A stretch of 33,624 nt of DNA, taken from Chloroflexota bacterium. Lineage in GTDB: Bacteria > Chloroflexota > JAJPGV01. The notes below the pieces were generated by a model that saw nothing but the letters and a program-made list of their open reading frames with translations, did not search any database and was not told the origin of the DNA. Positions 7,480-27,423 of the stretch are shown here, piece after piece. The position numbers and the translations under genes are program-made. Location of the stretch: positions 1-33,624 of the forward strand of contig DAIUFO010000002.1 in the NCBI GenBank assembly GCA_036844545.1, given 5' to 3'. How positions within the stretch are numbered: the first letter of the stretch is position 1; each line of letters begins with the position of its first letter.

Positions 7480-7498
7480 CAATCTGAGCCTTCGACTC

Positions 7499-10387: not shown

Positions 10388-10912
10388 ATGGCCCAGTTCA
10401 GCGTGAACCCTCAGCGCTTCGACCCCTACCAGAACTTCAAGTTCCGCGTCAAATGGGACGGCCGCTACGTCGCCGGGGTCAGCAAGGTGAGCGCCCTTAA
10501 GCGCACCACCGAGGTCGTCGAGCATCGCGAAGGCGGCGACCCGAGCACCGGCCGCAAGTCGCCCGGCCGCAGCAAATACGAGGCGATCACCATAGAGCGC
10601 GGCGTGACCCACGACACGGAGTTCGAGAAGTGGGCCAACAAGGTCTGGAACTTCGGCGCCGGGCTTGGCGCGGAAGTCTCCCTCAAAGACTTCCGCAAGG
10701 ACATCATCATCGACGTCTACAACGAAGCCGGCCAGCTCGCGCTGGCCTACAAGGTCTTCCGCTGCTGGGTGTCCGAGTTTCAGACCATCCCAGACCTGGA
10801 CGCCAACGCCAACGCCGTCGCCATCCAGCACATCAAGCTGGAAAACGAAGGTTGGGAGCGCGACGAGGCCGTCATCGAGCCCACGGAACCCAGCTTCACC
10901 ATCCCGGCATAA
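10388..10912 (+). CDS. cis1: Tail tube protein (T4 gp19-type; eCIS Cis1 / Afp1 equivalent)
   Basis: FDPYQNFKFRVKWDGRYVAGVSKVSALKRTTEVVEHREGGD...YEAITIERGVTHD matches the conserved phage tail region (tube) family. GAGGAGG at 10369-10375 precedes ATG 10388. Confidence 0.9.
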   Translation: MAQFSVNPQRFDPYQNFKFRVKWDGRYVAGVSKVSALKRTTEVVEHREGGDPSTGRKSPGRSKYEAITIERGVTHDTEFEKWANKVWNFGAGLGAEVSLKDFRKDIIIDVYNEAGQLALAYKVFRCWVSEFQTIPDLDANANAVAIQHIKLENEGWERDEAVIEPTEPSFTIPA

Positions 10913-11672: not shown

Positions 11673-12305
11673 ATGGCAGATGTCGCGCGTCCCCGGATCG
11701 AGCCGCTGTTCGCTAACGAGTCACGCGTGCAAGGGGACGCCGTCCCGAATGGCGCAGACGTAGACCTCGAGCTGCCCGCTGGGCCCTTGCCTCGGCCGGC
11801 GCGCCCGCGCAGCGCGCAGGCAGCGCCGCCGCGGCCGCTCGTATCGTCACTGGCCAGCGATGCCATGGAAGCACCCCTCGCGCCGGCCCGCCTTCATGTG
11901 AGGCCGCGGCGAGATGAACAGGCCCTTACGAGCGCGCGCGCCACCAGCCCGCTTGCAGCGGACGTCAGCAATCCTCGAGAATCGCGCCCGGGCTCGGAAC
12001 GGCACGAGTGGTTGCGGCCGGCGGGGGACGGACGCGAGAGCGACAACGCCAGCTTTGCCGCTCGCCCGACGCCGCTTGCATCCGACCACAATCCGCGAGC
12101 GGCCGGCGAGTCGCGGCCCGACCCCGGCCGGCAGGAGCGCCGGATGCAGGCCACCGCGCCACAACCGAGCGTTCGCGTCACGATCGGCCGCGTCGAGGTG
12201 CGGGCGGTCTTCCCGGCGCCGACGGCAGCGACTAGCCAGCCTCGACGCAGTCCCGAGCTTACGCTCGAAGACTACGTCAAACAGCGCAGCGAGGGACGGC
12301 GATGA
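11673..12305 (+). CDS. Low-complexity Pro/Ala/Arg-rich protein with an ordered C-terminal motif; candidate tape-measure-slot (Cis14-like) protein
   Basis: 210 aa from ATG 11673, mostly disordered-looking. It ends in VRVTIGRVEVRAVFPAP...LTLEDYVKQRS. The frame is open upstream to 11538 and encodes LTADFLSRLAERTLDG from CTG 11625, which overlaps the upstream stop as CTGA. There is no SD before ATG 11673, so the true start may be 11625. Confidence 0.6.
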   Translation: MADVARPRIEPLFANESRVQGDAVPNGADVDLELPAGPLPRPARPRSAQAAPPRPLVSSLASDAMEAPLAPARLHVRPRRDEQALTSARATSPLAADVSNPRESRPGSERHEWLRPAGDGRESDNASFAARPTPLASDHNPRAAGESRPDPGRQERRMQATAPQPSVRVTIGRVEVRAVFPAPTAATSQPRRSPELTLEDYVKQRSEGRR

Positions 12306-13522
12306 GCAACTTCCTCGCCATCGCCACCGTGACGGAGACGGTTCGCCAGCTCCTGCAAGCGGCGGTCGACGTGGATCTGCCAGGCACGACGGTGACGATG
12401 GCGCGGCCAGCGGACGACACCGTCGGGCCACAGGGCCCGCGCGTCAATGTCTTTCTCTACCGCGTCACACCCAACGCTGGCCTGCGCAACAACGACCTGC
12501 CAACGCGCCGCCCCGACGGCCAGCTGGAGGAGCGGCCCCAGACGGCGATCGACCTGCACTACCTGTTCAGCTTCTTTGGCGACGAGAGCCAGCTCGAGCC
12601 GCAGCGATTGCTCGGCACGGTCGTCCGCACGTTGCACGGCCAGCCGGTGCTGACGCGACAGACGATCGCCAGCGCCCTGGCCAGCACCACCTTCGGCTTT
12701 CTGGCCAGCTCTGATCTGGCAACGCAGCCCGAGCTGGTGAAGTTCACCCCGGCGGCGCTGTCGCTCGACGACCTGTCCAAGCTGTGGTCCGTCTTCTTCC
12801 AAGCGCCATTCGTGCTGTCCGTGACCTACGGGGCGACCGTTGTCCTCATCGAAGGCGGCGAAACACCCATGGCGGCGCTCCCGGTTCAGCGGCGCAACCT
12901 GCGCGTCCTGCCCTTCCGCCAGCCGTTCATCGAACGGGTGCTTGCCCAGGGCGGCCCCTCCGTGCCCATTGTCGCCGGCAGTGTGCTGTTGATCCGAGGG
13001 CAGCGGCTGCAGGGCGACGTCACCCTGGTGCGCCTCGCCGGCAGCCTGCTCACACCCGATTCCGTGACCGATACGGTTGTTTCGCTGACGCTCAGCGAGC
13101 CACCGCTGCCGGCGGGCGCGCTGCGTGCCGGGGTGCAAGGCGTCCAGATCGTGCAGCAGGTCCTTTTTGGCACCGCGGCCGATCCCCACCCCGGCTTCGA
13201 GTCAAACGTTGCGCCGTTCGTGATACACCCGTCCGTGACCGCGGTCGGTCTCGCCGGCAGTCTGGTCACGGTCAATGTCGACCCACCGGTGCGGGCCCGA
13301 CAGCGCGTCTCGTTGCTTCTGAACGAGCGCCTAGGAGCGCCGCCAGCGGCGCTGGTCTTCGCCACGCCGCCGCAGCCAGCCGACACCGCCGCGCCAGGGT
13401 TCACTGTCAGCGGCGTCGCGCCGGGCGAGTACTTCGTGCGACTCCAAGTTGATGGCGCCGAAAGCCCTGTCGATCTCGACCCGGCAAGCGCGCAATTCGG
13501 CCCAACGCTGACGTTCCCATGA
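12302..13522 (+). CDS. cis16: DUF4255 (Pvc16_N) protein, tail terminator/cap (Cis16 / Afp16 equivalent)
   Basis: MSNFLAIATVTETVRQLLQ...VNVFLYRVTPNAGLRNNDLP...IDLHYLFSFFG matches the DUF4255 N-terminal domain typical of eCIS loci. ATGA overlap with the upstream stop. Confidence 0.85.
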   Translation: MSNFLAIATVTETVRQLLQAAVDVDLPGTTVTMARPADDTVGPQGPRVNVFLYRVTPNAGLRNNDLPTRRPDGQLEERPQTAIDLHYLFSFFGDESQLEPQRLLGTVVRTLHGQPVLTRQTIASALASTTFGFLASSDLATQPELVKFTPAALSLDDLSKLWSVFFQAPFVLSVTYGATVVLIEGGETPMAALPVQRRNLRVLPFRQPFIERVLAQGGPSVPIVAGSVLLIRGQRLQGDVTLVRLAGSLLTPDSVTDTVVSLTLSEPPLPAGALRAGVQGVQIVQQVLFGTAADPHPGFESNVAPFVIHPSVTAVGLAGSLVTVNVDPPVRARQRVSLLLNERLGAPPAALVFATPPQPADTAAPGFTVSGVAPGEYFVRLQVDGAESPVDLDPASAQFGPTLTFP

Positions 13523-15486
13523 GCCTCCAGGCGGCGGCTGTGGAAACCTGGCAGGAGGCCAATAAACGCCACCTGGTGGCGGCGCTGGCAGGCGTCAAGA
13601 ATGCTCTCGAGCGCCACGCCGCTGGCGAGCCAACGCCGATCCTGACGGGCGCCCTGCCGGAGGCCGCGGGCGCCATTTCGCCGCCGCCGGCGCTCGATCG
13701 GCTGTGCACTGCCTTCAGCCTGACCCCGTTTGAGCGCGATGTCCTGCTGCTGTGCGCCGGCATCGAGCTCGAGTCCGGCTTTGGGTCGTTATGCGCGGCG
13801 GCTCAAGGCGATCCCCAGCGCGGCCAGCCGACCTTCAGCCTGGCTCTGGCAGCATTGCCGGACGCACACTGGAGCGCTCTGTCGCCGAGCGCGCCACTTC
13901 GCTACTGGCGTCTCATAGAGGTTGGCGCAGGCAGCACGCTGACGCTCAGCCCACTCCGCATCGATGAACGCGTGCTGCATTACCTGGCCGGCGTGCAGCA
14001 TATGGACGAGCGGCTTGCCGGCATCGTCGAAAGCGTGACGCCGGCCGAGGCTCTGCTGTCGCGGTCGCAACGCCAGGTCGCGGCGCTCGTGGCGGCAGTC
14101 TGGCGGCGAGGCCGAAGCTCAGGCCTCATCTCCTGTATTCAGCTGTGCGGCCCAGAGAGCGGAAGCAAGCGTGCGGTGGCGGCAGCCGCGTGCGCCGCCT
14201 CAGGGCTGAACCTGGCGGCCATTGCCGCCAGCAGCCTGCCAACGACGCCACACGAACTGGACGGCCTGATCCGCTTGTGGCTGCGCGAGGCAGCGCTCGA
14301 GGGCTGTGCGCTGTTGCTCGAGTGCGATGGCCTGGACTTCGCCGACGCAGCGCGCTCCGAAGCCGTGCGGCGCGTGATCGAGCAGGTCCATTCGGCGCTG
14401 ATTATCTCGAGTCGGGAGCGCCGGCCGGATGAGCCGCGGGGGCTGGTTACGTTCGAGGTCGGGCGGCCAGCCTCGAACGAGCAGGCCGACATGTGGCGGC
14501 AGGCCCTGGCGGAGACTGCGTGCGCGCCTGGGACGATCGAGGCGCTGGTATCCCAATTCAGCCTCGGCGCGCCCGCTATCAACGCCATTTGCGCCCAGGC
14601 GCTTGACCCCGACAAGAGCACAGCCGACATTCCCAAACGCTTGTGGGATGGCTGTCGCAGCCAGGCTCGGCCGCGGATGGAGGGCCTGGCGCGGCGCATC
14701 GAGCCTTCCGCAACCTGGGATGATCTTGTCCTGCCGGAGGCTCAGCTCCGTACGCTGCGCGAGGTAGCGGTGCACGTCCGGCAGCGAGCCAGAGTGTACG
14801 AGCAGTGGGGCTTCGCGGCCCGCTATGCCCGCGGCCTCGGCATCTGCCTGCTCGCTGCCGGCCCCAGCGGCACCGGCAAGACCATGGCCGCAGAGGTGCT
14901 GGCTAACGACCTGCAGCTCGACCTGTACCACATCGACCTGAGCCAGGTGGTCAGCAAATACATCGGCGAGACAGAAAAGAACTTGAGCCGCCTTTTCGAC
15001 GGCGCGGAGAGCGGGGCCGGCATCCTGCTGTTCGATGAGGCCGACGCGCTGTTCGGCAGGCGCACCGAGGTTAAGGACAGCCACGACCGCTACGCCAACA
15101 TCGAGATCAGCTATCTGCTACAGCGCGTGGAAGCGTATCGCGGCCTGGCCATCCTGACCACCAACATGAAAGACGCCCTGGACGCGGCATTCCTGCGGCG
15201 CATCCGGTTCGTCGTGCAGTTTCCATTTCCAGACGTGGCGCTGCGCACGCAGATATGGCGGCGCATCTTCCCCGGGCCCACGCCCACCCAAGACCTGGAC
15301 ATCGATCGACTGGCCCGCCTCAACCTCTCGGGCGGCAACATCCGCAACGTCGCCATGGGCGCGGCGTTCCTGGCGGCGGAAGCCGGCGCCGCGGTGGGTA
15401 TGCGGCACCTGGCCGTGGCCGCGCGGAGCGAGTACGCCAAGCTCGAAAAGCCGCTCAGCGAAGTCGAGATCGGGGGCTGGGTATGA
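13519..15486 (+). CDS. cis15: AAA+ ATPase (Cis15 / Afp15 / Pvc15 equivalent)
   Basis: Walker A GPSGTGKT at 14860-14883. Walker B ILLFDEAD at 15022-15045. A single C-terminal AAA+ module follows a ~400-aa N-terminal region, the architecture of eCIS ATPases. Confidence 0.9.
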
Positions 15487-15734
15487 ACATCGAGCTGCAC
15501 ATCGAGGAGCTGGTACTGCAGGGTTTCTCACACTCTCATCGGGGGGCAATTGGTCGGGCGATTGAAACGGAGCTGTCGCGGCTGCTGACCGACCGCGGCC
15601 TGCCCGCGTCCCTTTCCGGCGGCCGAGACGTGCGATCGCTCGATGCCGGCTCCTTTGTTGTGGAGCATGGCGCCCGCCCCAGCGCCATCGGAGCCCACGT
15701 GGGGCAGCTGCTTTACGAGGGGATGACCCGATGA
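15483..15734 (+). CDS. Small protein (83 aa) of unknown function, translationally coupled at both ends
   Basis: ATG 15483 overlaps the ATPase stop (ATGA). Its own stop overlaps ATG 15731 (ATGA). Product: [83 protein letters not shown]. In the ORF track it is hidden inside the 15255-15734 entry. Confidence 0.6.
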   Translation: MNIELHIEELVLQGFSHSHRGAIGRAIETELSRLLTDRGLPASLSGGRDVRSLDAGSFVVEHGARPSAIGAHVGQLLYEGMTR

Positions 15735-17653
15735 GCAGCTTCGTTCCTCTTGCCGTCAAACGCACCGCTGCGCCATCGTTCACGGCGGTCCGTGAGGGCA
15801 CCATTCAGCGCTGCGCCGCGGCGCCCTGTTCCGTGTGTTCCGCGCAAGAAGACGAGCAGTCGGTGATGCGCCAGCGCGCCTTCGTTTCCGGCGAGCCGCC
15901 GACGGTCCCAGCCATCGTCCGCGACGTCCTGCGATCACGCGGGCAGCCGCTGGACGCCGCCACGCGCGCCTTGTTCGAGCCGCGCTTCGGTCACGACTTC
16001 AGCGGCGTCCGCATCCACGCGGATGAGACGGCGGCGCGTGCGGCGGACGCCATCGGCGCGACCGCGTTCACGGTTGGCAGCTCGATCTCGTTTGGACGGG
16101 GCATGTATCAGCCGGGAACCGCGCCCGGACTGCAGCTCCTCGCCCACGAGCTGACACACACGGTCCAGCAGCGGGGCCGGATCGCCAGCGCGCAGCCGAG
16201 CCTCCGGGTGGGGGCAGCGAACGATGCCGCGGAGTCCACCGCCGAGCGGGTGGCCAACGCCGTGCTCGCCGGCCAGTCGATCCCGCGGATCGGCGCGACC
16301 GGCGCGATCATCCGCCGCAAGCCAAAGGTCTCGCCCGTCGCCAACGATCCGTCGCTGCGCATCGTCGAGATGGACAACGGGACTCGTTACCGCGTCAAGC
16401 GAACCGTCGAGTGGGTAAAGACGACGACCAAGCACTCCGGTGCGACCACCAAGTTCGGCGGAGACATCGACAAAGACAACGTCTGGATCCAGGTCGACCA
16501 CTGTGACGGCACGGGCGAGGTGAAGGTCAAGGTCGGCGCGAACATCCCCGCCGCCGCGCAGGATGTTCTGAAGAAAGCCGGCCAGGCAATCGTTGGTGGG
16601 GCCGACCCGGTTACGGCGCTCAAGGGTATCAAGCTCGAGCCGTTTGTGTCGGTCATCGTTGCCCAGTCTAAGAAGAGCAGCGTCACAGTGACTGGCAAGG
16701 TCACGACCGATATCGACAAGGGAAAAGTGACCGGCGGCGCCGCCGGCGTCACGGTAAAGGTGCCGGGCGCGGACTTCTCCCTGGAGGGAAAGATCGAGCA
16801 GGCGCCGCCAGGCCAAAAGCGTCCCAACTTCCAGGTGGGCGGCGTGGTAACCATCCCCCTTGGCAGTGGGCCGCCGAAGGTGGAGTGCCCTTCCTTCGAG
16901 CGGACCACCCAGGAGCCGCGGGTGAGCTACCAGTGCGAAAAGATTGTGCCCGAGCACGAGGAGGAGCGCACGCGCCCGGTCACTCGCAGCCAGACTCAGA
17001 GCTTCTACTTCAAATACGCAAGAAACGAGTTTGCAAAAAAGGGCCGCACTGCCGATCTCGACAACAACGCGAAGGCGGCTGTGACGGCGGCCTTGAAAGA
17101 CGGCTACAGGATCGTCTCAATCAGCGGCTACGCCTCGCCCGAAGGTCCCATGCCTCGGAAGACAAAGGGCTTTGAGGGCAACGAGGCGCTTTCGGCGGAC
17201 CGCGCAAAGGCAGCGGAAGACTGGGTCAAGACCGTCTGTCCGCCGCCTACAGCCCTGAGCATGCGGCCCAGCTGTTTCGCGGACGAATACCGAAGAGGCG
17301 AGCAGCATGAGCTTTATGGGAAGAAGAAAAACGAGCAAGGCGCGGAGGTGGGGCCGGAGCTCGAGGGCAAGGAACTCGAGACGTTCGCGGTGGGGCAGTT
17401 CGAGACGGAGGAAGCCGAGAAATCGCGGCGCACGCCGGACGTCATGGATGAACTGGCGAAGGGCAAGACGCCGGAGCGCCAAAAGGACACCGTTTACCCG
17501 CTGCTGCGCCGCGCTGAGATTACGTTGAGCAAGCAAGAGACGGAGACATACAAAGAAACCGTCAAGGAATCCAGCACGCCGGAGAGCTGTCCCCAGGACG
17601 TCATGGACGCCGCTGATGAGGATTTCGGGCGCGAGCCCCTGGTGAAGAAATAG
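15731..17653 (+). CDS. DUF4157 (HExxH zincin-like) protein with Lys-rich beta-strand middle region, OmpA-like C-terminal signature and K/E-rich tail; candidate eCIS cargo
   Basis: RALFEPRFGHDFSGVRIHADETAARAADAIGATAFTVGSSISFG...LLAHELTHTVQQ is the DUF4157 signature, with HELTH at 16145-16159. FYFKYARNEF...LDNNAKAAVTAALKDGYRIVSISGYASPEG...GNEALSADRAKAAEDWV (about 16988-17245) resembles the OmpA/MotB C-terminal peptidoglycan-binding motif. Confidence 0.85.
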   Translation: MSSFVPLAVKRTAAPSFTAVREGTIQRCAAAPCSVCSAQEDEQSVMRQRAFVSGEPPTVPAIVRDVLRSRGQPLDAATRALFEPRFGHDFSGVRIHADETAARAADAIGATAFTVGSSISFGRGMYQPGTAPGLQLLAHELTHTVQQRGRIASAQPSLRVGAANDAAESTAERVANAVLAGQSIPRIGATGAIIRRKPKVSPVANDPSLRIVEMDNGTRYRVKRTVEWVKTTTKHSGATTKFGGDIDKDNVWIQVDHCDGTGEVKVKVGANIPAAAQDVLKKAGQAIVGGADPVTALKGIKLEPFVSVIVAQSKKSSVTVTGKVTTDIDKGKVTGGAAGVTVKVPGADFSLEGKIEQAPPGQKRPNFQVGGVVTIPLGSGPPKVECPSFERTTQEPRVSYQCEKIVPEHEEERTRPVTRSQTQSFYFKYARNEFAKKGRTADLDNNAKAAVTAALKDGYRIVSISGYASPEGPMPRKTKGFEGNEALSADRAKAAEDWVKTVCPPPTALSMRPSCFADEYRRGEQHELYGKKKNEQGAEVGPELEGKELETFAVGQFETEEAEKSRRTPDVMDELAKGKTPERQKDTVYPLLRRAEITLSKQETETYKETVKESSTPESCPQDVMDAADEDFGREPLVKK

Positions 17654-17662
17654 GCCATCGCG

Positions 17663-18841
17663 ATGCTGAACCTGTCAGACATCGAGCCGAAGCAGCGAAC
17701 CGCCTCGAAGCATCAGGACGAGCGATCGCGCCTGCGCGGACGCGCCTGGGACGCGGAGCCGGCACGCGGCACGCGGCCGATCGTCCGGGACGTCGTAAGC
17801 TCAGCCGGCCAGACGCTCGATCCGCTGGCGCGTGCCTTCTTCGAGTCCCGGTTGGGTCATCACTTCGGCCACGTCCGCGTCCACACCGACGCGCGGGCCG
17901 CGGCTACGGCGCGGGCGCTTCGAGCGCAAGCCTACACCGTCGGGCCAGACATCGCCTTCGACACCGGGCGATACACGCCGCGGACGGCCGCGGGCCTCCA
18001 CTTGCTCGCGCACGAGCTGACCCACATCGTCCAGCAGGGCGCCAGCGCCGAGGTTCAAACGCTGGGAATGGCCGCCGTCGACAGTGACTCGGAACGGGAG
18101 GCCGCCAGGACTGCGGACCTCGTCGTAAGCGGTGGCCAGGTAGGCGGTATCTCTGCCCAGGGGAACGACGGCGTGGTTCACCGCGCGATCGGGGACGTCC
18201 TTGCGGGCGGGGCTCTCGGCGGTATCGCCGGCGCGGCGATCGGCTCGATCTTCGGGCCGATCGGGGCCTTGATCGGTGGTGGAATTGGCCTGCTGGCGGG
18301 CCTGGCGGCGGGCGAGGTCGCCGGGGCCCAGCGCCGAGAACTGACTGGCGACGAGCGGCGCGAGGCAGCGATTGTGTTCGGGCCCAGCCTCAACATGTCA
18401 ACGGTCCACGTCGCGGAGTCTTCAGTCATGGCCGTCGGGGGCTTTGCGCGAACGCCTTTCGACACCATCTATTTCCCGCCGGGCACGTCACGGCTTGGCT
18501 TTCCCGAATTCATGCCCTGGCTCATCCACGAGCTCACGCACGTTTGGCAATACCAGCACGGCGTGTCCGTAACGGAGAAGGTGTGGTGGGCGCTGCACGG
18601 CCAGTCTGCCTACGACTACGGGGGCGAAGCGGGACTCCGCGCCGCTGCGAGCCAGAACAAGCGCTTTACCGAGTTCAATACCGAGCAGCAGGCATCGATC
18701 GCGGCGGACTTCTACAAGGCCCAGCACGCGGGGCAGGACACATCCGCGTACGACCCGTTTATCGCGCAGCTTCGCGCCGGCGGCCGCACGGCTGGGGCCA
18801 CGACTGGTCCAGCTTCGCCAGCCAGCGGGGGCGGACGGTGA
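17663..18841 (+). CDS. DUF4157 (HExxH) protein with glycine-zipper membrane segment and a second HExxH metallopeptidase-like domain; candidate eCIS cargo/toxin
   Basis: ARAFFESRLGHHFGHVRVHTDARAA...LLAHELTHIVQQ, with HELTH at 18011-18025. Glycine zipper GDVLAGGALGGIAGAAIGSIFGPIGALIGGGIGLLAGLAAGEVAG (about 18188-18325). The C-terminal domain carries WLIHELTHVWQYQHG, with HELTH at 18527-18541. Confidence 0.85.
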   Translation: MLNLSDIEPKQRTASKHQDERSRLRGRAWDAEPARGTRPIVRDVVSSAGQTLDPLARAFFESRLGHHFGHVRVHTDARAAATARALRAQAYTVGPDIAFDTGRYTPRTAAGLHLLAHELTHIVQQGASAEVQTLGMAAVDSDSEREAARTADLVVSGGQVGGISAQGNDGVVHRAIGDVLAGGALGGIAGAAIGSIFGPIGALIGGGIGLLAGLAAGEVAGAQRRELTGDERREAAIVFGPSLNMSTVHVAESSVMAVGGFARTPFDTIYFPPGTSRLGFPEFMPWLIHELTHVWQYQHGVSVTEKVWWALHGQSAYDYGGEAGLRAAASQNKRFTEFNTEQQASIAADFYKAQHAGQDTSAYDPFIAQLRAGGRTAGATTGPASPASGGGR

Positions 18842-18851
18842 GGGCAAGAAG

Positions 18852-19508
18852 GTGAGTGGCTTCCCGGGCTCGCCGCGGCTCGTCAAGGGCGGACTGGTCC
18901 TGATTGACCCCGACACGTCCGCGGTGCAACGGGTCATCTCGCTGCAATACAACCCGGACTCGCTCAGCCGATCGTTCCAGATCAAGGCCTTTGCCGGCGA
19001 CGCGGGCGACCGCTCGGAAGCGCTGCGACTCAAGGGCCCGCCCGTGGAGTCGATCAAGCTCGACGCCGCGATCGATGCCACGGATCAGCTCGAGATCTCG
19101 GATCAGAATCCGAACGCCACGCAGTTCGGCATCTTGCCGCAGCTCGCCGCGCTGGAGACCATCGTCTACCCCAGCAGCAGCCAGCTCCTGGCGAACAACG
19201 CGCTGGCGCAGTCCGGGACGCTCGAGATCGTGCCGATGGAGACGCCCCTCACGCTGTTCGTTTGGAGCAAGAGCCGCATCCTGCCAGTGCGTCTAACGGA
19301 CTTCTCGATTACCGAGGAGGCGTTCGACCCGGCCCTGAACCCGATCCGCGCCAAGGTGAGTTTGGGCATGCGGGTCCTCACCGTGGACGACCTGCCCTTC
19401 TCGCACAAGGGCAGCAGCCTGTTCATGCATTACCTGCAGGCTAAGGAGCAGCTCGCGGCCAAGAGCTCGGGCCTGATCAACACGCTCGGAATAGGGGGCA
19501 TCCCATGA
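18852..19508 (+). CDS. Tube-fold baseplate/tube-initiator protein (Cis5 / Afp5-like)
   Basis: VISLQYNPDSLSRSF...LTLFVWSKSRILPVRLTDFSITEEAFDPALNPIRAKVSLGMRVL follows the FQFNPE...WG...PV.I.S.SI.E..F...L.P..A.V.L pattern of contractile-injection-system tube-like proteins. GTG start after GAAGG. Confidence 0.7.
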   Translation: MSGFPGSPRLVKGGLVLIDPDTSAVQRVISLQYNPDSLSRSFQIKAFAGDAGDRSEALRLKGPPVESIKLDAAIDATDQLEISDQNPNATQFGILPQLAALETIVYPSSSQLLANNALAQSGTLEIVPMETPLTLFVWSKSRILPVRLTDFSITEEAFDPALNPIRAKVSLGMRVLTVDDLPFSHKGSSLFMHYLQAKEQLAAKSSGLINTLGIGGIP

Positions 19509-19867: not shown

Positions 19868-20990
19868 GGGCGTCCACCTCACTTTGATGATTGGCCCTGC
19901 CGTGCCATTGCCGGTGTCGCGGGATGTCCTCGACGCCCTGACGGAAGTCCAGGTGACCACGTCGGACCAGGGGCCAAGCGCCTTCCAGCTGCAGTTCAGC
20001 CTCAAGACCAGTTCGCCGCTGCACACCCTCTTTCTCCTCTCGGGCGGCAGCCCCATACCGCTGGTGCGCGTGGTAATCATCGCCACGGTCAACGGCACGC
20101 CGAACGTGCTGATCGACGGCGTCATGACGAATCATGAGATCACTCCCGGCTCGGACGCCGCCCACGCGACATTGACCGTGACCGGCGAGGACCTTACCCG
20201 AGTGATGGACTACATCGACTTCAGCGGCATCCCCTACCCAGCCATGCCGCCCGAAGCGCGAGTCCTGCTCATACTGGCCAAGTACATCATTCTCGGCATC
20301 GTCCCCCTGGTCATCCCCAGTGTGCTGATCGACGTGCCGATCCCGGTCCAGATCATACCCCGGCAGCAGGGCACCGACCTCGCTTACGTACGGCAGCTGG
20401 CGGACGACGTGGGCTACGTGTTCTACGTCGAGGCGGGGCCGGCGCCGGGGACCAGCGTCGCCTACTGGGGGCCACAGATCAAAGTCGGACTTCCGCAGCC
20501 CGCCTTGAGCTCGCCCAACATGGACTCCTTCGCCAACGCTTCCACGGGCTCGTTCAGCTTCAACAGCGACTCCAAGAGGCTGCCGGTCCTGTTCATCCAG
20601 GAACCGATTACAAAGGCGCCCATTCCGATCCCCATTCCCGATATCACGCCCCTCAATCCACCGCTGGGCCTTATTCCCCCGATCCCTAAGGGCATCGAGC
20701 CTGTCGAAGGCACGGCCAAGTATGGGCCCGTCCGCGCCGCCCTCATCGGCCTGGCCAAGGCAGCAAGGTCCTCCGATGCGGTTTCGGCCACCGGCAGCCT
20801 CGACGTTTCACGCTATGGGCGCGTCCTGAAGGCGCGGAGCCTGGTGGGTGTGCGCGGCGTCGGCGCCGCCTTCGACGGCCTGTATTACGTCAAGAGCGTC
20901 ACCCACAACGTCAAACGCGGCGAGTACAAGCAGAGCTTCGCGCTCAGCCGCAACGGCCTCGTTTCGACCCTACCCAGGGTGCCTGCATGA
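19860..20990 (+). CDS. Late-control-gene-D-like baseplate hub protein (P2 gpD / Cis7-like)
   Basis: 376 aa. The C-terminal FDGLYYVKSVTHNVKRGEYKQSFALSRNGL is the characteristic end of gpD-family hub proteins. It sits directly upstream of the spike gene. Confidence 0.75.
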   Translation: MLKGVHLTLMIGPAVPLPVSRDVLDALTEVQVTTSDQGPSAFQLQFSLKTSSPLHTLFLLSGGSPIPLVRVVIIATVNGTPNVLIDGVMTNHEITPGSDAAHATLTVTGEDLTRVMDYIDFSGIPYPAMPPEARVLLILAKYIILGIVPLVIPSVLIDVPIPVQIIPRQQGTDLAYVRQLADDVGYVFYVEAGPAPGTSVAYWGPQIKVGLPQPALSSPNMDSFANASTGSFSFNSDSKRLPVLFIQEPITKAPIPIPIPDITPLNPPLGLIPPIPKGIEPVEGTAKYGPVRAALIGLAKAARSSDAVSATGSLDVSRYGRVLKARSLVGVRGVGAAFDGLYYVKSVTHNVKRGEYKQSFALSRNGLVSTLPRVPA

Positions 20991-21502
20991 GCGAAGCCAA
21001 GAAGTTCTACGGCAAATATCGCAGCACGGTCGTGAACAACATCGATCCGCTGCAAATGGGCCGCCTCCAGGCGATCGTGCCCGACGTTTCGGCTGTGATG
21101 CTGACAAGTTGGGCGCTGCCCTGCCTGCCCGTCGGCGGCATTCAGACCGGCATCTTTTCGGTGCCGCCAATCGGCGCCGGGGTGTGGGTCGAGTTCGAAC
21201 AAGGCGACCCAGATTTCCCGATTTGGACCGGCTGCTTCTGGGGCTCAGCGGCAGAGGTCCCGGCCCTGGCGCACGCGGTGCCACCGGCCTTGTTCGGCAT
21301 CACCCTACAGACCCCGCTCCAGAACGGCATCGTCATCAGCGACGTCCCGGGCCCGACCGGCGGGATCATGCTCAAGAGCACCACCGGCGCCACCATCATT
21401 GTCAACGACACTGGCATCTACATACAGAACGGCAAGGGCGCGTCCATCATCATGACCGGTCCCACCGTCACCATAAACCAGGGCGCGATGGTGATCACCT
21501 GA
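20987..21502 (+). CDS. cis8: Baseplate spike protein (P2 gpV / gp5 OB-fold / VgrG-like; Cis8)
   Basis: YGKYRSTVVNNIDPLQMGRLQAIVPDV...WALPCLPVGG...GIFSVPPIGAGVWVEFEQGDPDFPIWTGCFW matches the Phage_base_V / gp5 N-terminal OB-fold family. Confidence 0.9.
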   Translation: MSEAKKFYGKYRSTVVNNIDPLQMGRLQAIVPDVSAVMLTSWALPCLPVGGIQTGIFSVPPIGAGVWVEFEQGDPDFPIWTGCFWGSAAEVPALAHAVPPALFGITLQTPLQNGIVISDVPGPTGGIMLKSTTGATIIVNDTGIYIQNGKGASIIMTGPTVTINQGAMVIT

Positions 21503-21819
21503 TGCCGGGCTTCGCCGTCCACCTGGGCGCCGTGGTGACGTGCATGCACGGCGGGCAGGCGCAGCCCGCGGCGCCCAATCCGCGCGTCCTCGTCAGCGGC
21601 CAGCCCGTGTCCACACTGGCCAGCCCTTACGTCGTGGCCGGCTGTCCCTTCGTCCCGCCAGCCGCTGGACCCTGCGTCTCGGCCCAGTGGGTGTCGGGAG
21701 CGACCCGCGTCTTCGTTGGCGGAGCGCCGCTGGTAGTTCAAAGCAGCCAGGCAGTGTGCGTGCCAACCGGCACCGGACTGCTGGTGATCGCTACTCAGAC
21801 CCGGGTGCTGGCTACATGA
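21502..21819 (+). CDS. PAAR-like spike-tip protein (Cis10 position)
   Basis: 105 aa, beta-rich, four spaced Cys (CMHGG, AGCPF, GPCVSAQW, AVCVP). It lies immediately after the spike gene (TGATG junction). There is no literal PAAR tripeptide repeat, so it is closer to the DUF4280/DUF4150-type PAAR-like proteins. In the ORF track it is hidden at the end of the 20848-21819 entry. Confidence 0.6.
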   Translation: MPGFAVHLGAVVTCMHGGQAQPAAPNPRVLVSGQPVSTLASPYVVAGCPFVPPAAGPCVSAQWVSGATRVFVGGAPLVVQSSQAVCVPTGTGLLVIATQTRVLAT

Positions 21820-22184
21820 CCCAGGTCGATTTTCCTTATCACTTCGACCACCGCGGCCGTACGGCTAGCCCCGACGACCAGGACGCGCACGTCCGCGACC
21901 TCATAGAGCAAGTCCTGTTCACGGCGCCGGGCGAGCGCGTGAACCGGCCCGACTTCGGCTGCGGTTTGATGCAGCTGGTCTTCCAACCCAACAGCGTGGA
22001 CCTAGCCGCCGCTACCGAATTCCTCGTTCAGAGCTCGCTGCAGCAGTGGCTGGGCGACCTGATCCTGGTCGAATCGGTTCAAGTCGAAGATGAGGACTCG
22101 ACGCTGCGGGTCACGCTGCAATACGTCGTGCGACGCACCGAGGCCAGATCGGTGGCGCAGTTCACCAGGGGCAGCACGACGTGA
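21816..22184 (+). CDS. cis9: GPW/gp25-family baseplate wedge protein (Cis9)
   Basis: AHVRDLIEQVLFTAPGERVNRPDFGCGLMQLVFQPN...LVQSSLQQW matches the gp25/gpW lysozyme-like baseplate family. ATGA overlap upstream. In the ORF track it is hidden inside 21540-22184. Confidence 0.85.
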   Translation: MTQVDFPYHFDHRGRTASPDDQDAHVRDLIEQVLFTAPGERVNRPDFGCGLMQLVFQPNSVDLAAATEFLVQSSLQQWLGDLILVESVQVEDEDSTLRVTLQYVVRRTEARSVAQFTRGSTT

Positions 22185-24658
22185 TCGCGTTTTGCTGCGA
22201 CCGCCTGCGTCGCGACGCGGTCCAAGGCAGCGCCCTCAACGGCATCGACTACCTGGAGGTGCTCGATCTCGACGCGCCCACGCCCGCCGAACGCCAGCGC
22301 AGCCTGTTCGTGCACTTCATCAATGCGCCCGCTCCAGCCCTCACGCCCGGTAACGTCATCATCTCCGGGGGCGAGCGCGTGCGTGATATCCACGTCACCA
22401 GCGCCGCCGTAGACGGGACAGATTCGCACATCCTGGTGGTGAAAGTCGACCAGCCAGGCGACTTCTCCGTCTACACGCTCAACCTGGTGCAGGATGCGCT
22501 GCATCCACAGCCGCCAGCCGGCATCGACCCCGTGCTCTCAACGGTCGACTTCACCTTCAAGGCCGAGTGCCCAACGGATTTCGACTGCAAGCCGCTCACC
22601 TGGTGCCCGCCCGAACTGGAGCCGGCACCGGACATCGACTACCTGGCGAAGGACTATGCCAGCTTCCGGCGGCTGATGCTGGACCGCATGGCGGTCCTCG
22701 CGCCGCAGTGGCAGGAGCGCAACCCGGCCGATCTGGGTATCACCCTGGTGGAGCTGCTCGCGTTTGCAGGCGACTACCTCAGCTATCAGCAGGACGCCAT
22801 TGGGACCGAGGCCTACCTGGGCACGGCCCGCCGCCGCGTCTCAGTGCGCCGCCATGCCCGCCTGGTGGATTACGTCATGCACGATGGCTGCAACGCGCGA
22901 GCGTGGGTACAGCTGCAGGTGAGCGACGACGTCACCAAACCGCTGCCCGCCTCGCCGCCGCCGCTGCCCAAGGGCACGCCGCTGTGTACCGCTCTGCTCG
23001 GCCAGGGCCCGCTGCTTGCCAACCGCGCGCTCCTGGAGAAGGCCGACGTCGTGTTCGAGACGATGGACGACGTCCAGGCGCTGTTCAAGGATCACAATTC
23101 CATGTCCTTCTACACCTGGAGCGATCAGCAGTGCTGCCTGCCGACAGGTACGACCGAGGCGACGCTCAAGGGCCATCTCCCCCACCTGCAGCCAGGCGAC
23201 GTCCTCATCTTCGAGGAGGTGCTCGGCCCGCTTACGGGTGATGCCCCGGACGCCGACGCCAGCCACCGCTGCGCCGTGCGCCTCACGCTGGTGCAGGCCT
23301 TCGACGCCGCGAGCAATCCCCTCACCGATCTGTTGACTGGCCAGCCCGTTACCAGGATCGAATGGGGCGCTGAGGATGCGCTGCCCTTTCCGCTGTGTGT
23401 ATCCGCCCGCACCGACGCCCGCCATGGCGAGCGCTACGTGGAGGACGTGAGCGTCGCGCGCGGCAATGTCGTGCTGGTCGACCACGGTTTTACGCTCACG
23501 CCCGAGGACCTCGGCCTGGTGCCCGAGTCCCGCCTGTTCTTGCCGCCTAACGGTAGCGCCTGTAACCGCCAGGACCCTGTCGCGGTGCCGCGGCGCTTCC
23601 GCCCGGCCCTGAAGAGCGCCCCCGCCACCCAAGTCGCGCCGCTTGCTATGACTGTCCCGGCGTCTCGCGCCCTAATTTCGGACCCTCATGCTGCCCTGCC
23701 GGCCATTACTCTGGCGAGCCAGCTCAACGCCGACACCGTTCGTTGGGGGCCGCGGCTCGACCTGCTGAACAGCGGGCCCGACGACCCCGATTTCGTGGCG
23801 GAGGTAGAGGTCGATGGCACGGCCTACCTGCGCTTCGGCGACGACCAGCACGGCCGCCGGCCAGAGCCGGGCACAAAGTTCAGCGCCACCTATCGGGCTG
23901 GCAGCGGCGTGGCCGGCAACGTCGGCCGCGAGGCAATCAAGCACATCTTCCTCAACGAGCAGGCAATCATTGGAGTGCGTAACCCGATGCCCGCCCAGGG
24001 AGGCATCGAGCCCGAGTCGATGGAGGATGTGCGCCAGCGCGCGCCAAGCGCCTTCCGCACGCAGGAGCGCGCCGTCACCGAGGCCGACTACGCCGACGTC
24101 GCCCAGCGACGAGCCGGCATTCAGCGTGCCGCCGCTACTTTCCGCTGGACCGGCAGCTGGCACACGGTGTTCCTGACCATCGACCGCTTCGGCGGCCTCA
24201 CCGTGGACGATGCGTTCAAACAGGATGTGCGCGGCTTCGTCGAAGGCTACCGCATGGCCGGGTACGACCTGGAGGTAGACGCCCCGCGATTTGTCTCGCT
24301 CCGCATAGAGATGCAGGTTTGCGTCAAGCCGGACTACTTCCGTGGCGACGTGAAGGCCAGTCTGCTGGAAGTGTTCAGCAATCGCATTCTGGCAGACGGG
24401 CGGCGCGGCGTCTTCCACCCCGATAACTTCACCTTCGGACAGACGGTCTACCTCAGCCCGTTGTACGCCGCCGCCCAGGATGTGGCGGGCATCGATTCCG
24501 TCGACGTCACGGTCTTCGGCCGCATGGGCGTCAGCGACCCGACGCCGCTGCAGCGGGGTGAGCTGCTGCTCAGCCGCCTCGAGATTGCCCGTCTCGACAA
24601 CGACCCCAGCCTGCCGGAGAATGGCGTCTTCACGCTGACGGTAGTGGGCGGCAAGTGA
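22181..24658 (+). CDS. cis11: Baseplate J-like protein (T4 gp6 / P2 gpJ; Cis11)
   Basis: 825 aa. N-terminus FCCDRLRRDAV...NGIDYLEVLD. Core ...TEADYADVAQRRAGIQRAAATFRWTGSWHTVFLTIDRFGG is typical of putative baseplate assembly (Baseplate_J) proteins. GTGA overlap upstream. Confidence 0.85.
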   Translation: MIAFCCDRLRRDAVQGSALNGIDYLEVLDLDAPTPAERQRSLFVHFINAPAPALTPGNVIISGGERVRDIHVTSAAVDGTDSHILVVKVDQPGDFSVYTLNLVQDALHPQPPAGIDPVLSTVDFTFKAECPTDFDCKPLTWCPPELEPAPDIDYLAKDYASFRRLMLDRMAVLAPQWQERNPADLGITLVELLAFAGDYLSYQQDAIGTEAYLGTARRRVSVRRHARLVDYVMHDGCNARAWVQLQVSDDVTKPLPASPPPLPKGTPLCTALLGQGPLLANRALLEKADVVFETMDDVQALFKDHNSMSFYTWSDQQCCLPTGTTEATLKGHLPHLQPGDVLIFEEVLGPLTGDAPDADASHRCAVRLTLVQAFDAASNPLTDLLTGQPVTRIEWGAEDALPFPLCVSARTDARHGERYVEDVSVARGNVVLVDHGFTLTPEDLGLVPESRLFLPPNGSACNRQDPVAVPRRFRPALKSAPATQVAPLAMTVPASRALISDPHAALPAITLASQLNADTVRWGPRLDLLNSGPDDPDFVAEVEVDGTAYLRFGDDQHGRRPEPGTKFSATYRAGSGVAGNVGREAIKHIFLNEQAIIGVRNPMPAQGGIEPESMEDVRQRAPSAFRTQERAVTEADYADVAQRRAGIQRAAATFRWTGSWHTVFLTIDRFGGLTVDDAFKQDVRGFVEGYRMAGYDLEVDAPRFVSLRIEMQVCVKPDYFRGDVKASLLEVFSNRILADGRRGVFHPDNFTFGQTVYLSPLYAAAQDVAGIDSVDVTVFGRMGVSDPTPLQRGELLLSRLEIARLDNDPSLPENGVFTLTVVGGK

Positions 24659-27423
24659 CGAACACCAGAACGCCCTGCCCGGCCGGCATGTGCACCTGCG
24701 GCTGCTGCCTGGGCCTCACCGCCGTTACGCCGCTGCAGATCTACAACCGGCCAGGGCGCTCGGCCATCGCCTACCGGGCTGGCACCCAGCCGCTGTTCAA
24801 GCGCAGCATGCTGGCGGCCCTGTCCTCCTCGGACCACCCCGCGCTGGCCGCCCTCGGAAGCCGCGCCGACGACGACTTCTCGATTGCCCTGCTGGACGCC
24901 TGGGCCACAGTCGCCGACGTGCTCACGTTCTATCAGGAGCGCATCGCTAACGAATCCTACCTGCAGACGGCCACCGAGCGCCTCTCTTTGCTGGAGATGG
25001 GACGCCTCATCGGTTACGAGCTGCGGCCTGGCGTGGCGGCCAGCACCCACATCGCCTTCACGCTGGACTCCGGACCTGGCTCGCCAATGCAGACCACGAT
25101 AGACCCCGGCGTCAAGGTTCAGAGCATCCCCGGCCCCAACGAGAAGCCCCAAACGTTCGAGACCGTGGCCGGCATCCAGGCGCGCGTGGAGTGGAATGCG
25201 CTGACGCCGCGCCTGACCCGGCCTCAGGCCATCGATCGGACGACCCGCCAGCTTTACCTTGCGGGCACCGACACGCAGCTGCAGGTTGGCGACGGGATTC
25301 TGGTCGTTGGTCAAGAGCGGGAGGACGACCCGGGCAGCGAACAGTGGGACTTCCGCGTGCTGGAGAGCGTCCAGCGCGACTCCGATTCCGGCCACACCCT
25401 CATTGCCTGGAGCGAGCCACTCGGCGCCGCCGCGCCTCACGTCGTCAATCCGGCCAACCTGAGCCCCAGGCTCTTCGCGCTGCGCCAGCGGGCCGCGCTC
25501 TTCGGCCACAACGCGCCCGATCCCCTCATCCTCCACCTGGACGCGACCAGCCCGCTGCTGGACCACGGCCAGTGGAAAAACTTTGTGCTCGATGCGACCA
25601 AGATCGACCTTGACGCTGTCTATACCAAAGTCCTCGCCGGGAGCTGGGCCGTGCTCGTGAGCCCGACCCGCCGCGAGCTGTGCCGGGTGTCGCAGGTAAC
25701 CAGCCTTTCGGATTCGCGCTTCGCTCTCAGCGGCAAGTTCACCCGCATCGTGCCGGATGTACTCGAGCACGCCTCCTCGTTTGGCCTGCGGAGTACCACC
25801 GTCTTTGCCCAGAGCGAACAGTTGGAGCTGGTGGAGCGACCTGTAGCCGAGCCGGTCTACGGCAGCCACATTGCGCTCGGGCAGCTCGCGCCCGAGCTTG
25901 CGCCAGCTCAGACGCTGGCGTTGAGCGGCAAACGTCAGCGCCTTCGGCTCACCTTAAAGGCCAGGAACCTGTCCCTCACCTCGGGCAGTGGCGCCACTGC
26001 CCCCGTCCTCGCCGGCGATTCCCTGGAGATTCTGGCGCCACCCACGATTCCCGCCGGCGGCGCCGCGACAACGGCCATCTCACCCGACGACCTGGTGGCG
26101 GCGCTGGGCGGCAGCGTGCCCCAGACGATCGTTTGGCAACTTCGGGACAAGAACGGCTTCACCGGCAGCCTCACCGCCGGCTCCGACCAAGTGGCTCTGG
26201 CGAAAGCCGAAAAAGACGATGACGTCGTCAGCGAGCTTGCCTTTATCGACGGCGCCGCCGACGCCGTCTCACAGGACGGCAGCCAGACTGCCATCCAGCT
26301 GCGCGACGTGCTCGCCAATTGCTACGACCGCGAGACGGTGCGCATCAACGCCAACGTAGCGTCCGCCACCCATGGCGAAACGGTGCCCCAGGAAGTGCTC
26401 GGTGCCGGCGACGCAAGCCAGACCTACCAGCGTTTCACGCTCAAGCAGCCGCCCCTCACGTACGTCAGCGCCTCCACCGCCAGCGGCGCCCGATCTACTC
26501 TGGAAGTCCGCGTGAACGACCTGCTTTGGCAGGAGGCGCCCAGCCTTTACAGCCAAGGGCCGCGGGATCGTGTCTACGTCACGCACACCTCTGACGACGG
26601 CAAGACCACGGTGGAGTTTGGCGATGGCAGCAACGGCGCCCGGCTGCCCAGCGGCGCGGACAACGTAAGGGCGAAGTATCGAAGGGGCATCGGCCTCGAA
26701 GGCGTCGTCAAGGCTGGGCAGCTCAGCCAGCTCATGACACGGCCTCTCGGTGTCAAGGACGCCATCAACCCCGAAGCCGCCACCGGCGCCGCTAACCCGG
26801 AATCGCCCGCCGACGCCCGCCGCAACGAGCCGCTCACCGTGCTCACACTGGATCGCGCCGTATCTCTGCTGGACTACGAGGACTTCGCCCGCGCCTTCGG
26901 CGGCGTCGCCAAGGCGCGGGCGAGCTGGAGTTGGGACGGCCTGGAGCGGCGCGTGTTCGTCGTTGTCGCCGGGCCCGGCGGGGCCGCCATCCCGCAGGAC
27001 AGCGACACGTTCATGAACCTGGTCGCTGCCCTGGCGTCCGCCGGCGACCCATTCGTCAGCTTCAGCGTCAAGTCGTACCGCGCGGTCACGTTCAGGCTCG
27101 TCGCGAACGTCAAGGTGGACGAGCCCACCTACGTGCGCACAAACGTTATGGCCGCGGTTGAGGCCGCACTGCGCGAGCGCTTCTCTTTCGAAGCGCGCTC
27201 CTTCGGCCAGCCCGTCGTGCTCAGCGACGTCATCGCTGCCATGCAGGACGTAGCCGGCGTGGTGGCCGTGGACGTCAACAAGCTCTACCGCGGCGACGCC
27301 GCGCCGGCTCTGAACACTCGCCTGACCGCTGCGAAGACGGCGCCGGACGCGGCCGGAGCGCTCCAGGCCGCCGAGCTCCTGACGCTCGACCCGGCGCCGC
27401 TGGGGCTGGGGGTGATGACATGA
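24655..27423 (+). CDS. cis12: Second large baseplate assembly protein (gp7-like; Cis12)
   Basis: 922 aa. N-terminal Cys cluster CPAGMCTCGCCLG, then IYNRPGRSAIAYRAGTQPLFKRSMLAAL. Also ATHGETVPQEVLGAGDASQTYQRFTLKQPPLTYVSA...LEVRVNDLLWQE. This is the common paralogue that follows Baseplate_J in eCIS loci. GTGA overlap upstream. Confidence 0.8.
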   Translation: MTNTRTPCPAGMCTCGCCLGLTAVTPLQIYNRPGRSAIAYRAGTQPLFKRSMLAALSSSDHPALAALGSRADDDFSIALLDAWATVADVLTFYQERIANESYLQTATERLSLLEMGRLIGYELRPGVAASTHIAFTLDSGPGSPMQTTIDPGVKVQSIPGPNEKPQTFETVAGIQARVEWNALTPRLTRPQAIDRTTRQLYLAGTDTQLQVGDGILVVGQEREDDPGSEQWDFRVLESVQRDSDSGHTLIAWSEPLGAAAPHVVNPANLSPRLFALRQRAALFGHNAPDPLILHLDATSPLLDHGQWKNFVLDATKIDLDAVYTKVLAGSWAVLVSPTRRELCRVSQVTSLSDSRFALSGKFTRIVPDVLEHASSFGLRSTTVFAQSEQLELVERPVAEPVYGSHIALGQLAPELAPAQTLALSGKRQRLRLTLKARNLSLTSGSGATAPVLAGDSLEILAPPTIPAGGAATTAISPDDLVAALGGSVPQTIVWQLRDKNGFTGSLTAGSDQVALAKAEKDDDVVSELAFIDGAADAVSQDGSQTAIQLRDVLANCYDRETVRINANVASATHGETVPQEVLGAGDASQTYQRFTLKQPPLTYVSASTASGARSTLEVRVNDLLWQEAPSLYSQGPRDRVYVTHTSDDGKTTVEFGDGSNGARLPSGADNVRAKYRRGIGLEGVVKAGQLSQLMTRPLGVKDAINPEAATGAANPESPADARRNEPLTVLTLDRAVSLLDYEDFARAFGGVAKARASWSWDGLERRVFVVVAGPGGAAIPQDSDTFMNLVAALASAGDPFVSFSVKSYRAVTFRLVANVKVDEPTYVRTNVMAAVEAALRERFSFEARSFGQPVVLSDVIAAMQDVAGVVAVDVNKLYRGDAAPALNTRLTAAKTAPDAAGALQAAELLTLDPAPLGLGVMT

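Follow-up and report, generated by a model that had tools for sequence, protein, structure and literature searches.

Proteins with the DUF4157 domain are a hallmark of extracellular contractile injection system (eCIS) loci, where this domain stands N-terminal to diverse toxin domains, and many of these toxins have no immunity gene (PMC8213781, PMC11297309). The AlgoCIS proteins Cgo1 and Cgo2, each built from a disordered N-terminal domain, DUF4157 and a C-terminal domain, fill the tube lumen (PMC8894135), and the N-terminal domain is required for AlgoCIS cargo loading (bioRxiv 10.64898/2026.05.27.728243). A second relevant system is VgrG2b of Pseudomonas aeruginosa, in which a C-terminal effector domain (VgrG2b-Cter) is fused to the spike of the H2 type VI secretion system (T6SS) after a TTR domain. 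VgrG2b-Cter is an antibacterial gluzincin that is toxic in the periplasm only, requires its HExxH motif, causes midcell blebbing and lysis, and is neutralised by the periplasmic immunity protein PA0261 (PMC6899460). Here we describe a 392-amino-acid (aa) protein encoded on a 33,624-nucleotide (nt) stretch of Chloroflexota DNA (assembly GCA_036844545.1, contig DAIUFO010000002.1; the whole stretch is called the window below). By its sequence, this target protein is an uncharacterised member of a recognisable large family, built like a DUF4157-marked eCIS toxin. In our judgement it is probably an eCIS cargo toxin which combines a disordered leader, DUF4157, a membrane-active hairpin and a VgrG2b-like peptidase, a reading that draws on sequence and on analogy with the systems above.

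The original prediction, made from the DNA letters, had described one 392-aa open reading frame (ORF) with two HELTH motifs, and the ORF and both motifs were recovered at exactly the coordinates given there (Table 1), together with all the C-terminal strings that it cited. Two metagenome contigs encode the identical protein, each with the same neighbours. Conservation counts given here come from an alignment of 76 homologues sharing the target architecture, and the structure is an AlphaFold2 (AF2) model computed from this alignment, with a mean predicted local distance difference test score (pLDDT) of 83. The model consists of a disordered leader (residues 1-35), a confident domain (39-155), a strand (171-175), two helices (177-197 and 199-221) and a second confident domain (225-371). 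In 20,000 shuffles of the target protein, two or more HExxH motifs arose in 0.04%, an uncharged run of at least 39 aa in 0.01% and at least 14 Gly within 36 aa in 0.27%, frequencies which exclude chance. The chain length of [GAS]xxx repeats was dropped as a statistic, its observed value being reached by 13% of shuffles, and the uncharged-run and Gly-density tests were used instead. Minus-strand ORFs at 17801-18181, 18178-18468 and 18488-19081 were rejected as high-GC shadow artefacts; hundreds of homologues exist for the plus-strand frame. NCBIfam gave no match for the target protein, its C-terminal half or the 640-aa DUF4157 protein encoded next to it. A search of a viral structure library with the target returned nothing at E <= 0.001 and thus provides no link of its domains to phage proteins.

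The C-terminal domain (domain 2) has a sole significant match in the PDB, by sequence and by fold, and this is the VgrG2b effector domain (PDB 6H56). A phmmer search gave E 1.4e-10 over aa 193-370, blastp gave 30% identity across 151 aa, and the top Foldseek match was 6h56_A/B (E 1e-4, probability 1.00, template modelling (TM) score for the target 0.59-0.60), for a domain that is modelled mostly at pLDDT above 90. The original prediction had linked HELTHVWQ-type domains to Vgr elements, and these searches bear it out. Residues H289, E290 and H293 align with H935, E936 and H939 of VgrG2b (phmmer alignment combined with the numbering of PMC6899460), and E341 in the N-T-E-Q-Q motif supplies the remaining ligand position. 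Judged from sequence and model, domain 2 adopts the zincin fold that had been proposed, and its HExxH...E metal site is complete. Weaker structural matches are all gluzincins as well, namely BlaR1, abylysin, ZMPSTE24 and ArdC. Abylysin (4JIU), BlaR1 (M56; 8EXQ/8EXR) and ZMPSTE24 (M48; 6BH8) have small HExxH...E gluzincin cores as in the target, combined with transmembrane helices in BlaR1 and ZMPSTE24; at E 0.02-0.9 and TM below 0.5, with no sequence similarity, these three matches indicate fold class only.

The likeness to VgrG2b extends beyond the metal site. Domain 2 and VgrG2b-Cter have the motifs HExxHxWQxQHG and N-x-E-Q-Q in common, and in both proteins a hydrophobic Gly/Ala-rich helix precedes the peptidase domain, the stretch in VgrG2b being shorter than its equivalent in the target. 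Both are tied to a contractile injection machine, delivery of the target being predicted from its operon. Unlike VgrG2b, the target carries DUF4157 and a full two-helix zipper ahead of the peptidase domain; its gene belongs to an eCIS operon, and no immunity gene adjoins it.

The first HELTH motif had been placed in a DUF4157 domain, and PF13699 indeed matches domain 1 with 118.1 bits (E 2e-34, cut-off 22, aa 52-127). The HExxH stands at the end of the DUF4157 domain and is followed by QQ (HELTHIVQQ, aa 117-125), and E144 or E146 of the E-R-E-A motif further on is probably the third zinc ligand of this domain. When domain 2 was scanned alone, PF13699 scored 21.8 bits against the cut-off of 22. 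Comparison of family-alignment profiles with hhalign aligned domain 1 to domain 2 over 78 columns with 97.2% probability (E 3.6e-11). This homology makes the protein a tandem of two divergent DUF4157-type minigluzincins, which agrees with the report by Wood et al. that relatives of VgrG2b-Cter are frequently annotated as DUF4157 (PMC6899460). The target shares with DUF4157-marked eCIS toxins, many of which lack an immunity gene, an N-terminal DUF4157 ahead of a C-terminal toxin-type domain and a place in an eCIS operon (PMC8213781, PMC11297309); it differs from them in the relationship of its toxin-type domain to DUF4157 and in the position of the gene in the middle of the operon. That the toxin-type domain is related to DUF4157, and that a conserved glycine-zipper hairpin separates the two domains, are the modestly new features of this protein.

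Between the two domains lies a segment dominated by Gly, Ala, Ile and Leu. The string for which a 45-aa glycine-zipper segment had been predicted is present, yet the run without charged or amide residues is 39 aa long (aa 179-217) and not 45. Within it, a 36-aa string (GGALGG...GLAAG, aa 182-217, nt 18206-18313) includes 14 Gly, and ten overlapping [GAS]xxx[GAS]xxx[GAS] motifs surround a central G-P. Conservation is at least 90% for G198, G201, G206, G209 and the central G-P, and the flanking arginines R174 and R225 are each kept in 75 of the 76 homologues. PF13441 (Gly-zipper_YMGG) reaches 18.5 bits on the target, below its cut-off of 28.9, and precomputed matches to PF13441 or PF13488 are recorded for several homologues. 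GxxxG periodicity, the G-P turn and family conservation identify the segment, at the level of sequence, as the glycine zipper of the original prediction, in the form of a real hairpin maintained by selection and not of a flexible soluble linker; its membrane role is a prediction. The same GxxxG-repeat hairpin with a central turn is found in PF13441 (YMGG-like) and PF13488 (Gly-zipper_Omp) and in SlyB-type lipoproteins, and one homologue is named 'outer membrane lipoprotein SlyB' at its source. In contrast to SlyB-type lipoproteins, the target lacks a lipoprotein signal peptide and carries its zipper inside the chain, with an enzyme domain on either side. In some members of the family the zipper is a single helix.

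A survey of 80 listed DUF4157 loci, with 175 DUF4157 ORFs, showed zippers in 13 ORFs, five of them from the target family; unrelated C-termini occur among the 13. Standalone domain-2 homologues of 190-230 aa also begin with a zipper (P0001, P0002, P0003, P0005 and P0010). The idea that the zipper is a general part of a DUF4157 delivery module was rejected on both grounds. Among the papers searched, none pairs DUF4157 with 'glycine zipper', and the accessible part of the enrichment table of Geller et al. (PMC8213781) gives no eCIS counts for Gly-zipper_Omp.

The target family is large. A full-length search returned 792 matches; over 100 clusters (90% identity) align with 80% or more of the query, at 35-70% identity. 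The few full-length relatives named by source come from Chloroflexia and Inquilinus limosus, and matches from Ktedonobacterales and Longimicrobiaceae cover only about 38% of the query. Domain 2 alone is represented by 1,247 clusters at 50% identity with E <= 1e-3 (279 with E <= 1e-10), usually as the C-terminal part of proteins 150-850 aa long. It was found in four of the 80 DUF4157 loci, which marks an accessory family and not a core machine part; we rejected the target gene as a universal eCIS core component for this reason. Standalone domain-2 homologues are about 150-280 aa long, often with an N-terminal hydrophobic segment, and those named by source are from Actinomycetota. Two of them, P0028 (L088 8001-8471) and P0007 (L089 8001-8609), are found in ordinary chromosomal contexts far from injection systems, and other standalone members occur in mobile-element or housekeeping contexts. 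This suggests that one branch of the domain-2 family has a housekeeping function or some other role than that of a weapon. In one eCIS locus (L086 7322-8651), a 194-aa DUF4157-only ORF is followed about 95 nt on by a 216-aa ORF with zipper and peptidase, which could be either a natural two-gene version of the target architecture or a disrupted gene.

A second HExxH motif is present in about 60 of the 175 DUF4157 ORFs and belongs to several unrelated C-terminal families, so that, judged by sequence, the order of DUF4157 and then a second metallopeptidase seems to be a general pattern. Types seen repeatedly are TILHEPFHI..., TL[ML]HE[AS]GHNCGIP... and LLKHEQxH[FY]... (L005, L007, L018, L023, L047, L053, L073, L083 and others); in one locus (L073), a single type is present as four paralogues in tandem. 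Cgo1 (ALPR1_12695, Algoriphagus machipongonensis) resembles the target in its two HExxH motifs, disordered N-terminal domain, DUF4157 and C-terminal domain predicted to be a metalloprotease, and its gene also adjoins a second DUF4157 cargo gene, a likeness taken from published descriptions only. Cgo1 has 498 aa and the target 392 aa. Since many unrelated C-terminal HExxH families follow DUF4157, homology to Cgo1 cannot be assumed, and a search seeded with a Bacteroidales relative gave short standalone proteins only and no Algoriphagus protein. The DUF4157 loci listed from the genome scan likewise included none from Algoriphagus.

Several observations weigh against reading the target as a membrane-acting peptidase toxin. 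The two zipper helices are modelled at low confidence (pLDDT 53-68), and by simple scales membrane insertion of the zipper is energetically marginal, with a borderline positive Kyte-Doolittle 19-residue maximum of 1.85 and an unfavourable Hessa insertion energy of +2.3 to +2.7 kcal/mol. Several close standalone homologues in housekeeping contexts without an eCIS imply that domain 2 is not intrinsically a weapon, and the family, with 45-70% identity across phyla, is more conserved than is usual for polymorphic toxins. VgrG2b has no known substrate (Wood et al. 2019, PMC6899460), and DUF4157 is dispensable for AlgoCIS loading (bioRxiv 10.64898/2026.05.27.728243). Finally, full-length Cgo1 was toxic to E. 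coli whether or not both HExxH motifs were mutated and independently of periplasmic targeting (PMC8894135), so catalysis may not be the toxic principle.

The last point is what would be expected if the target were an injected toxin whose zipper hairpin kills by membrane perturbation or pore formation, with the gluzincin domains as accessories in processing, folding or targeting. Glycine zippers occur in pore-forming toxins. The zipper of the target family is as conserved as the catalytic residues, down to its arginine flanks, and its recurrence with unrelated C-termini fits as well. However, the H/E/H/E residues of both domains are kept across the 76 sequences (H293 in 75 of them), and such near-total conservation argues for selection on metal binding or catalysis. 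Furthermore, VgrG2b residues 847-1019, which lack most of the hydrophobic helix, are still toxic in an HExxH-dependent manner (PMC6899460). We regard a toxin acting through its zipper as unlikely.

The genes of the window support delivery by an eCIS. Profile matches identified sheath, tube, Pvc16_N, AAA ATPase, CIS_tube, gp5-like spike, gp25 and Baseplate_J genes, no T6SS membrane-complex gene was found in the window, and by its gene content the locus is an Afp/PVC-like eCIS operon. Injection-machine genes (sheath, tube, Pvc16, ATPase, spike and baseplate) flank the target on both sides. We compared five related loci (L083, L084 (Inquilinus limosus), L085 and the Acidobacteriia/Acidobacteriaceae metagenome-assembled genomes L003 and L023), all of which have the same gene order as the window. 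Between their ATPase and tube-initiator genes lie one to four DUF4157 genes with different C-termini (e.g. Gln_deamidase_2), and the place of the target family inside this block varies. The ORF following the target had been predicted to be structural, and its match to CIS_tube agrees; it starts 10 nt past the target stop codon, and a tube-initiator gene has an equivalent place in L003, L023, L083 and L085.

In three of the six loci, the tube-initiator gene immediately follows the gene of the target family, which could instead point to a non-toxic structural or assembly accessory, such as a plug or cargo adaptor associated with the spike or tube initiator, with peptidase motifs used for maturation. 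Work on contractile injection systems (CIS) of actinobacteria and archaea has connected DUF4157 proteins with secretion as well as with the spike or tube-initiator complex. In Streptomyces CIS, such proteins either co-purify with the proteins of spike and tube initiator or were assayed for binding to them, and they can serve other cargo as partners (PMC11126660, PMC13277306). The high conservation for a toxin would also suit an accessory. Against this stand the absence of the family from most DUF4157 loci, its variable position within the DUF4157 block, and the occurrence of domain 2 as a T6SS toxin and in standalone proteins unrelated to any particle, which together make a structural role very unlikely.

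As the original prediction stated, there is no obvious immunity gene. The gaps on both sides of the target are only 9-10 nt, leaving no room for an adjacent immunity gene, and the neighbours are DUF4157 and tube genes. No small partner next to the family is conserved in the five related loci, in a comparison of these loci that was not a search with the PA0261 sequence. Such a lack is ordinary, since VgrG2b-Cter is harmless in the cytoplasm and eCIS toxins often have no immunity gene (PMC6899460, PMC8213781). Another conceivable reading is a release factor that acts inside the producer: with the zipper in the producer membrane, the VgrG2b-like lytic peptidase would help lysis and so free the particles. 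eCIS particles are freed by lysis, and profile scans of the window recognised no holin or endolysin gene; VgrG2b-Cter is bacteriolytic once in the periplasm (PMC6899460), a contribution of eCIS toxins to lysis has been raised by Geller et al. (PMC8213781), and the single-helix zipper of some members would put domain 2 across the membrane. However, with a hairpin of two helices domain 2 would stay on the cytoplasmic face of the membrane, a disordered leader with DUF4157 is the architecture of proven cargo, the gene stands among variable effector genes and not lysis genes, and a domain found in four of 80 DUF4157 loci is not a general release device. We consider a release factor highly improbable.

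As a cargo toxin, the target would be synthesized in the producer cytoplasm together with the rest of the operon. Its charged leader of about 38 residues has no Sec-type hydrophobic core, and residues 1-35 have pLDDT below 50; loading leaders are system-specific. By analogy with the AlgoCIS and PVC experiments, we infer that the leader is the cargo-loading sequence, which would be recognised by the Pvc15-like AAA+ ATPase for loading into the tube lumen or onto the spike. Domain 1 would mark the protein as eCIS cargo and probably has an accessory role, for example contacting the tube initiator or spike or helping to process or refold cargo. After contraction, the protein would be released into or at the envelope of the target cell, where the arginine-flanked hairpin may associate with the membrane and hold domain 2 at its surface. 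On the analogy of VgrG2b, domain 2 could then act against the envelope proteins of bacterial cells, with lysis as the outcome. The producer may be safe because the domain is harmless in its cytoplasm, the particles are released by lysis and the tail fibres aim at other cells.

A self-contained 'inject, insert, cut' device would go further. Here DUF4157 would cleave at the flanking L24-R25 and V172-H173-R174 and so free a module of zipper and peptidase; the zipper would insert into the membrane of the target cell and carry or anchor the peptidase at the periplasmic face, or would itself be lethal. We think this quite unlikely. If true, a job in cargo maturation would fall to DUF4157, which is the most widespread of the eCIS domains without an assigned function, and the HExxH-independent toxicity of Cgo1 would be explained. 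A hydrophobic-[Q/R/H]-R motif does recur on both sides of DUF4157 in the target, as L24-R25 (17732-17737; R25 in 62 of the 76 homologues) and at aa 172-175. Similar motifs flank DUF4157 in the neighbour at 15731-17653 (GTIQRC, VMRQRA and AIIRRK). The recurrent motif could be a processing site or merely a charged flank, and for the VHRA motif in particular a processing site or a positive flank of the hairpin are both possible.

These results are a useful annotation and do not overturn current views. At least 100 clusters (90% identity) labelled 'DUF4157 / eCIS core domain-containing' can now be described as leader, DUF4157, zipper hairpin and VgrG2b-type gluzincin. A structurally solved antibacterial T6SS effector domain also occurs in putative eCIS cargo and is thus common to both contractile machines, a hint that bacterial envelopes may be what this eCIS lineage is directed at. 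The homology between the toxin-type domain and the eCIS marker DUF4157 bears on the question of DUF4157 function. As a compact protein whose catalytic glutamates and zipper can be mutated one by one, the target lends itself to telling catalysis from membrane action.

Table 1. Positions of the target gene, its parts and other genes of the eCIS operon in the window
Feature	Positions	Strand	Remarks
Target gene	17663-18841	+	392-aa DUF4157 / glycine-zipper / VgrG2b-C-like protein, putative eCIS cargo effector
N-terminal leader, aa 1-38	17663-17776	+	Charged, predicted disordered, candidate cargo-loading sequence, L24-R25 motif
Domain 1, aa 39-155	17777-18127	+	Canonical DUF4157/eCIS_core minigluzincin; PF13699; AF2 pLDDT 81-98
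First HExxH (HELTH), aa 117-121	18011-18025	+	H117, E118, H121 invariant in 76/76
E-R-E-A motif, aa 144-147	18092-18103	+	E144 70/76, E146 68/76, A147 72/76; helix 142-155 of model
[VIL]-[QRH]-R-[STA] motif (VHRA, aa 172-175)	18176-18187	+	Just before zipper; R174 75/76
Glycine zipper, aa 179-217	18197-18313	+	Two predicted helices, conserved G-P turn; 39-aa run, AF2, family conservation
Domain 2, aa 225-371	18335-18775	+	VgrG2b-C-terminal-like gluzincin, divergent DUF4157-type; phmmer, Foldseek, hhalign
Second HExxH (HELTH), aa 289-293	18527-18541	+	H289, E290 invariant; H293 75/76
N-T-E-Q-Q motif, aa 339-343	18677-18691	+	E341, Q343 invariant; E341 corresponds to VgrG2b third zinc ligand E983
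Sheath	8794-10365		
Tube	10388-10912		
Pro/Ala/Arg-rich low-complexity 210-aa protein	11673-12305	+	No Pfam match
Pvc16_N cap protein	12302-13522		
Pvc15-like AAA+ ATPase	13519-15486	+	Presumed cargo loader, role inferred from PVC/AlgoCIS literature; PF00004, PF22977
Small 83-aa ORF	15483-15734	+	No Pfam match
640-aa DUF4157 protein	15731-17653	+	Second putative cargo; PF13699 6.7e-31
Tube-initiator-like gene (Afp5/Pvc5 type)	18852-19508	+	PF19266 CIS_tube 3.1e-07
gp5-like spike	20987-21502		
PAAR/DUF4280-like	21502-21819		Weak, below Pfam cut-off
gp25	21816-22184		
Two Baseplate_J proteins	22181-27423		
DUF6519 + beta-helix protein	29528-32806	+	
Tail_X-like protein	32825-33499		

Among the neighbouring genes, the second putative cargo protein has no sequence relatives in the PDB. 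It carries an OmpA-like stretch near its C-terminus (ISGYASPEG...NEALSADRAKAAEDWV) that scores 17.4 bits, below the Pfam cut-off of 27.2. If this peptidoglycan-binding signature is real, it would be a hint of a bacterial-envelope target; being below the cut-off, the match was not used as evidence for one. The protein with DUF6519 and a beta-helix is likely a tail-fibre or receptor-binding protein and could point to the target organism. Genes of 83-98 aa, like the small ORF after the ATPase gene in the window, stand after the ATPase and before the DUF4157 block in L083 (5492-5746), L084 (9665-9961) and L085 (6705-6956). The low-complexity 210-aa protein is encoded between the tube-region genes and Pvc16, with a similar-sized ORF at the equivalent place in related loci, and may be a length-determining or assembly protein.

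Upstream of the operon, two ORFs have no Pfam match (356-1768 and 4330-4749). A B12-binding ORF (5847-6377) and a radical-SAM ORF (6265-7479), both on the plus strand, overlap in different frames; together they look like the parts of a single gene for a B12-dependent radical SAM protein, interrupted near 6300-6370 either by a frameshift or through faulty assembly. After them, and just upstream of the sheath gene, a sulfotransferase is encoded at 7442-8434. Further upstream, a 765-aa DDE transposase with Transposase_29 and HTH domains is encoded at 1816-4113 (plus strand), and this annotation suggests that the eCIS locus borders mobile DNA.

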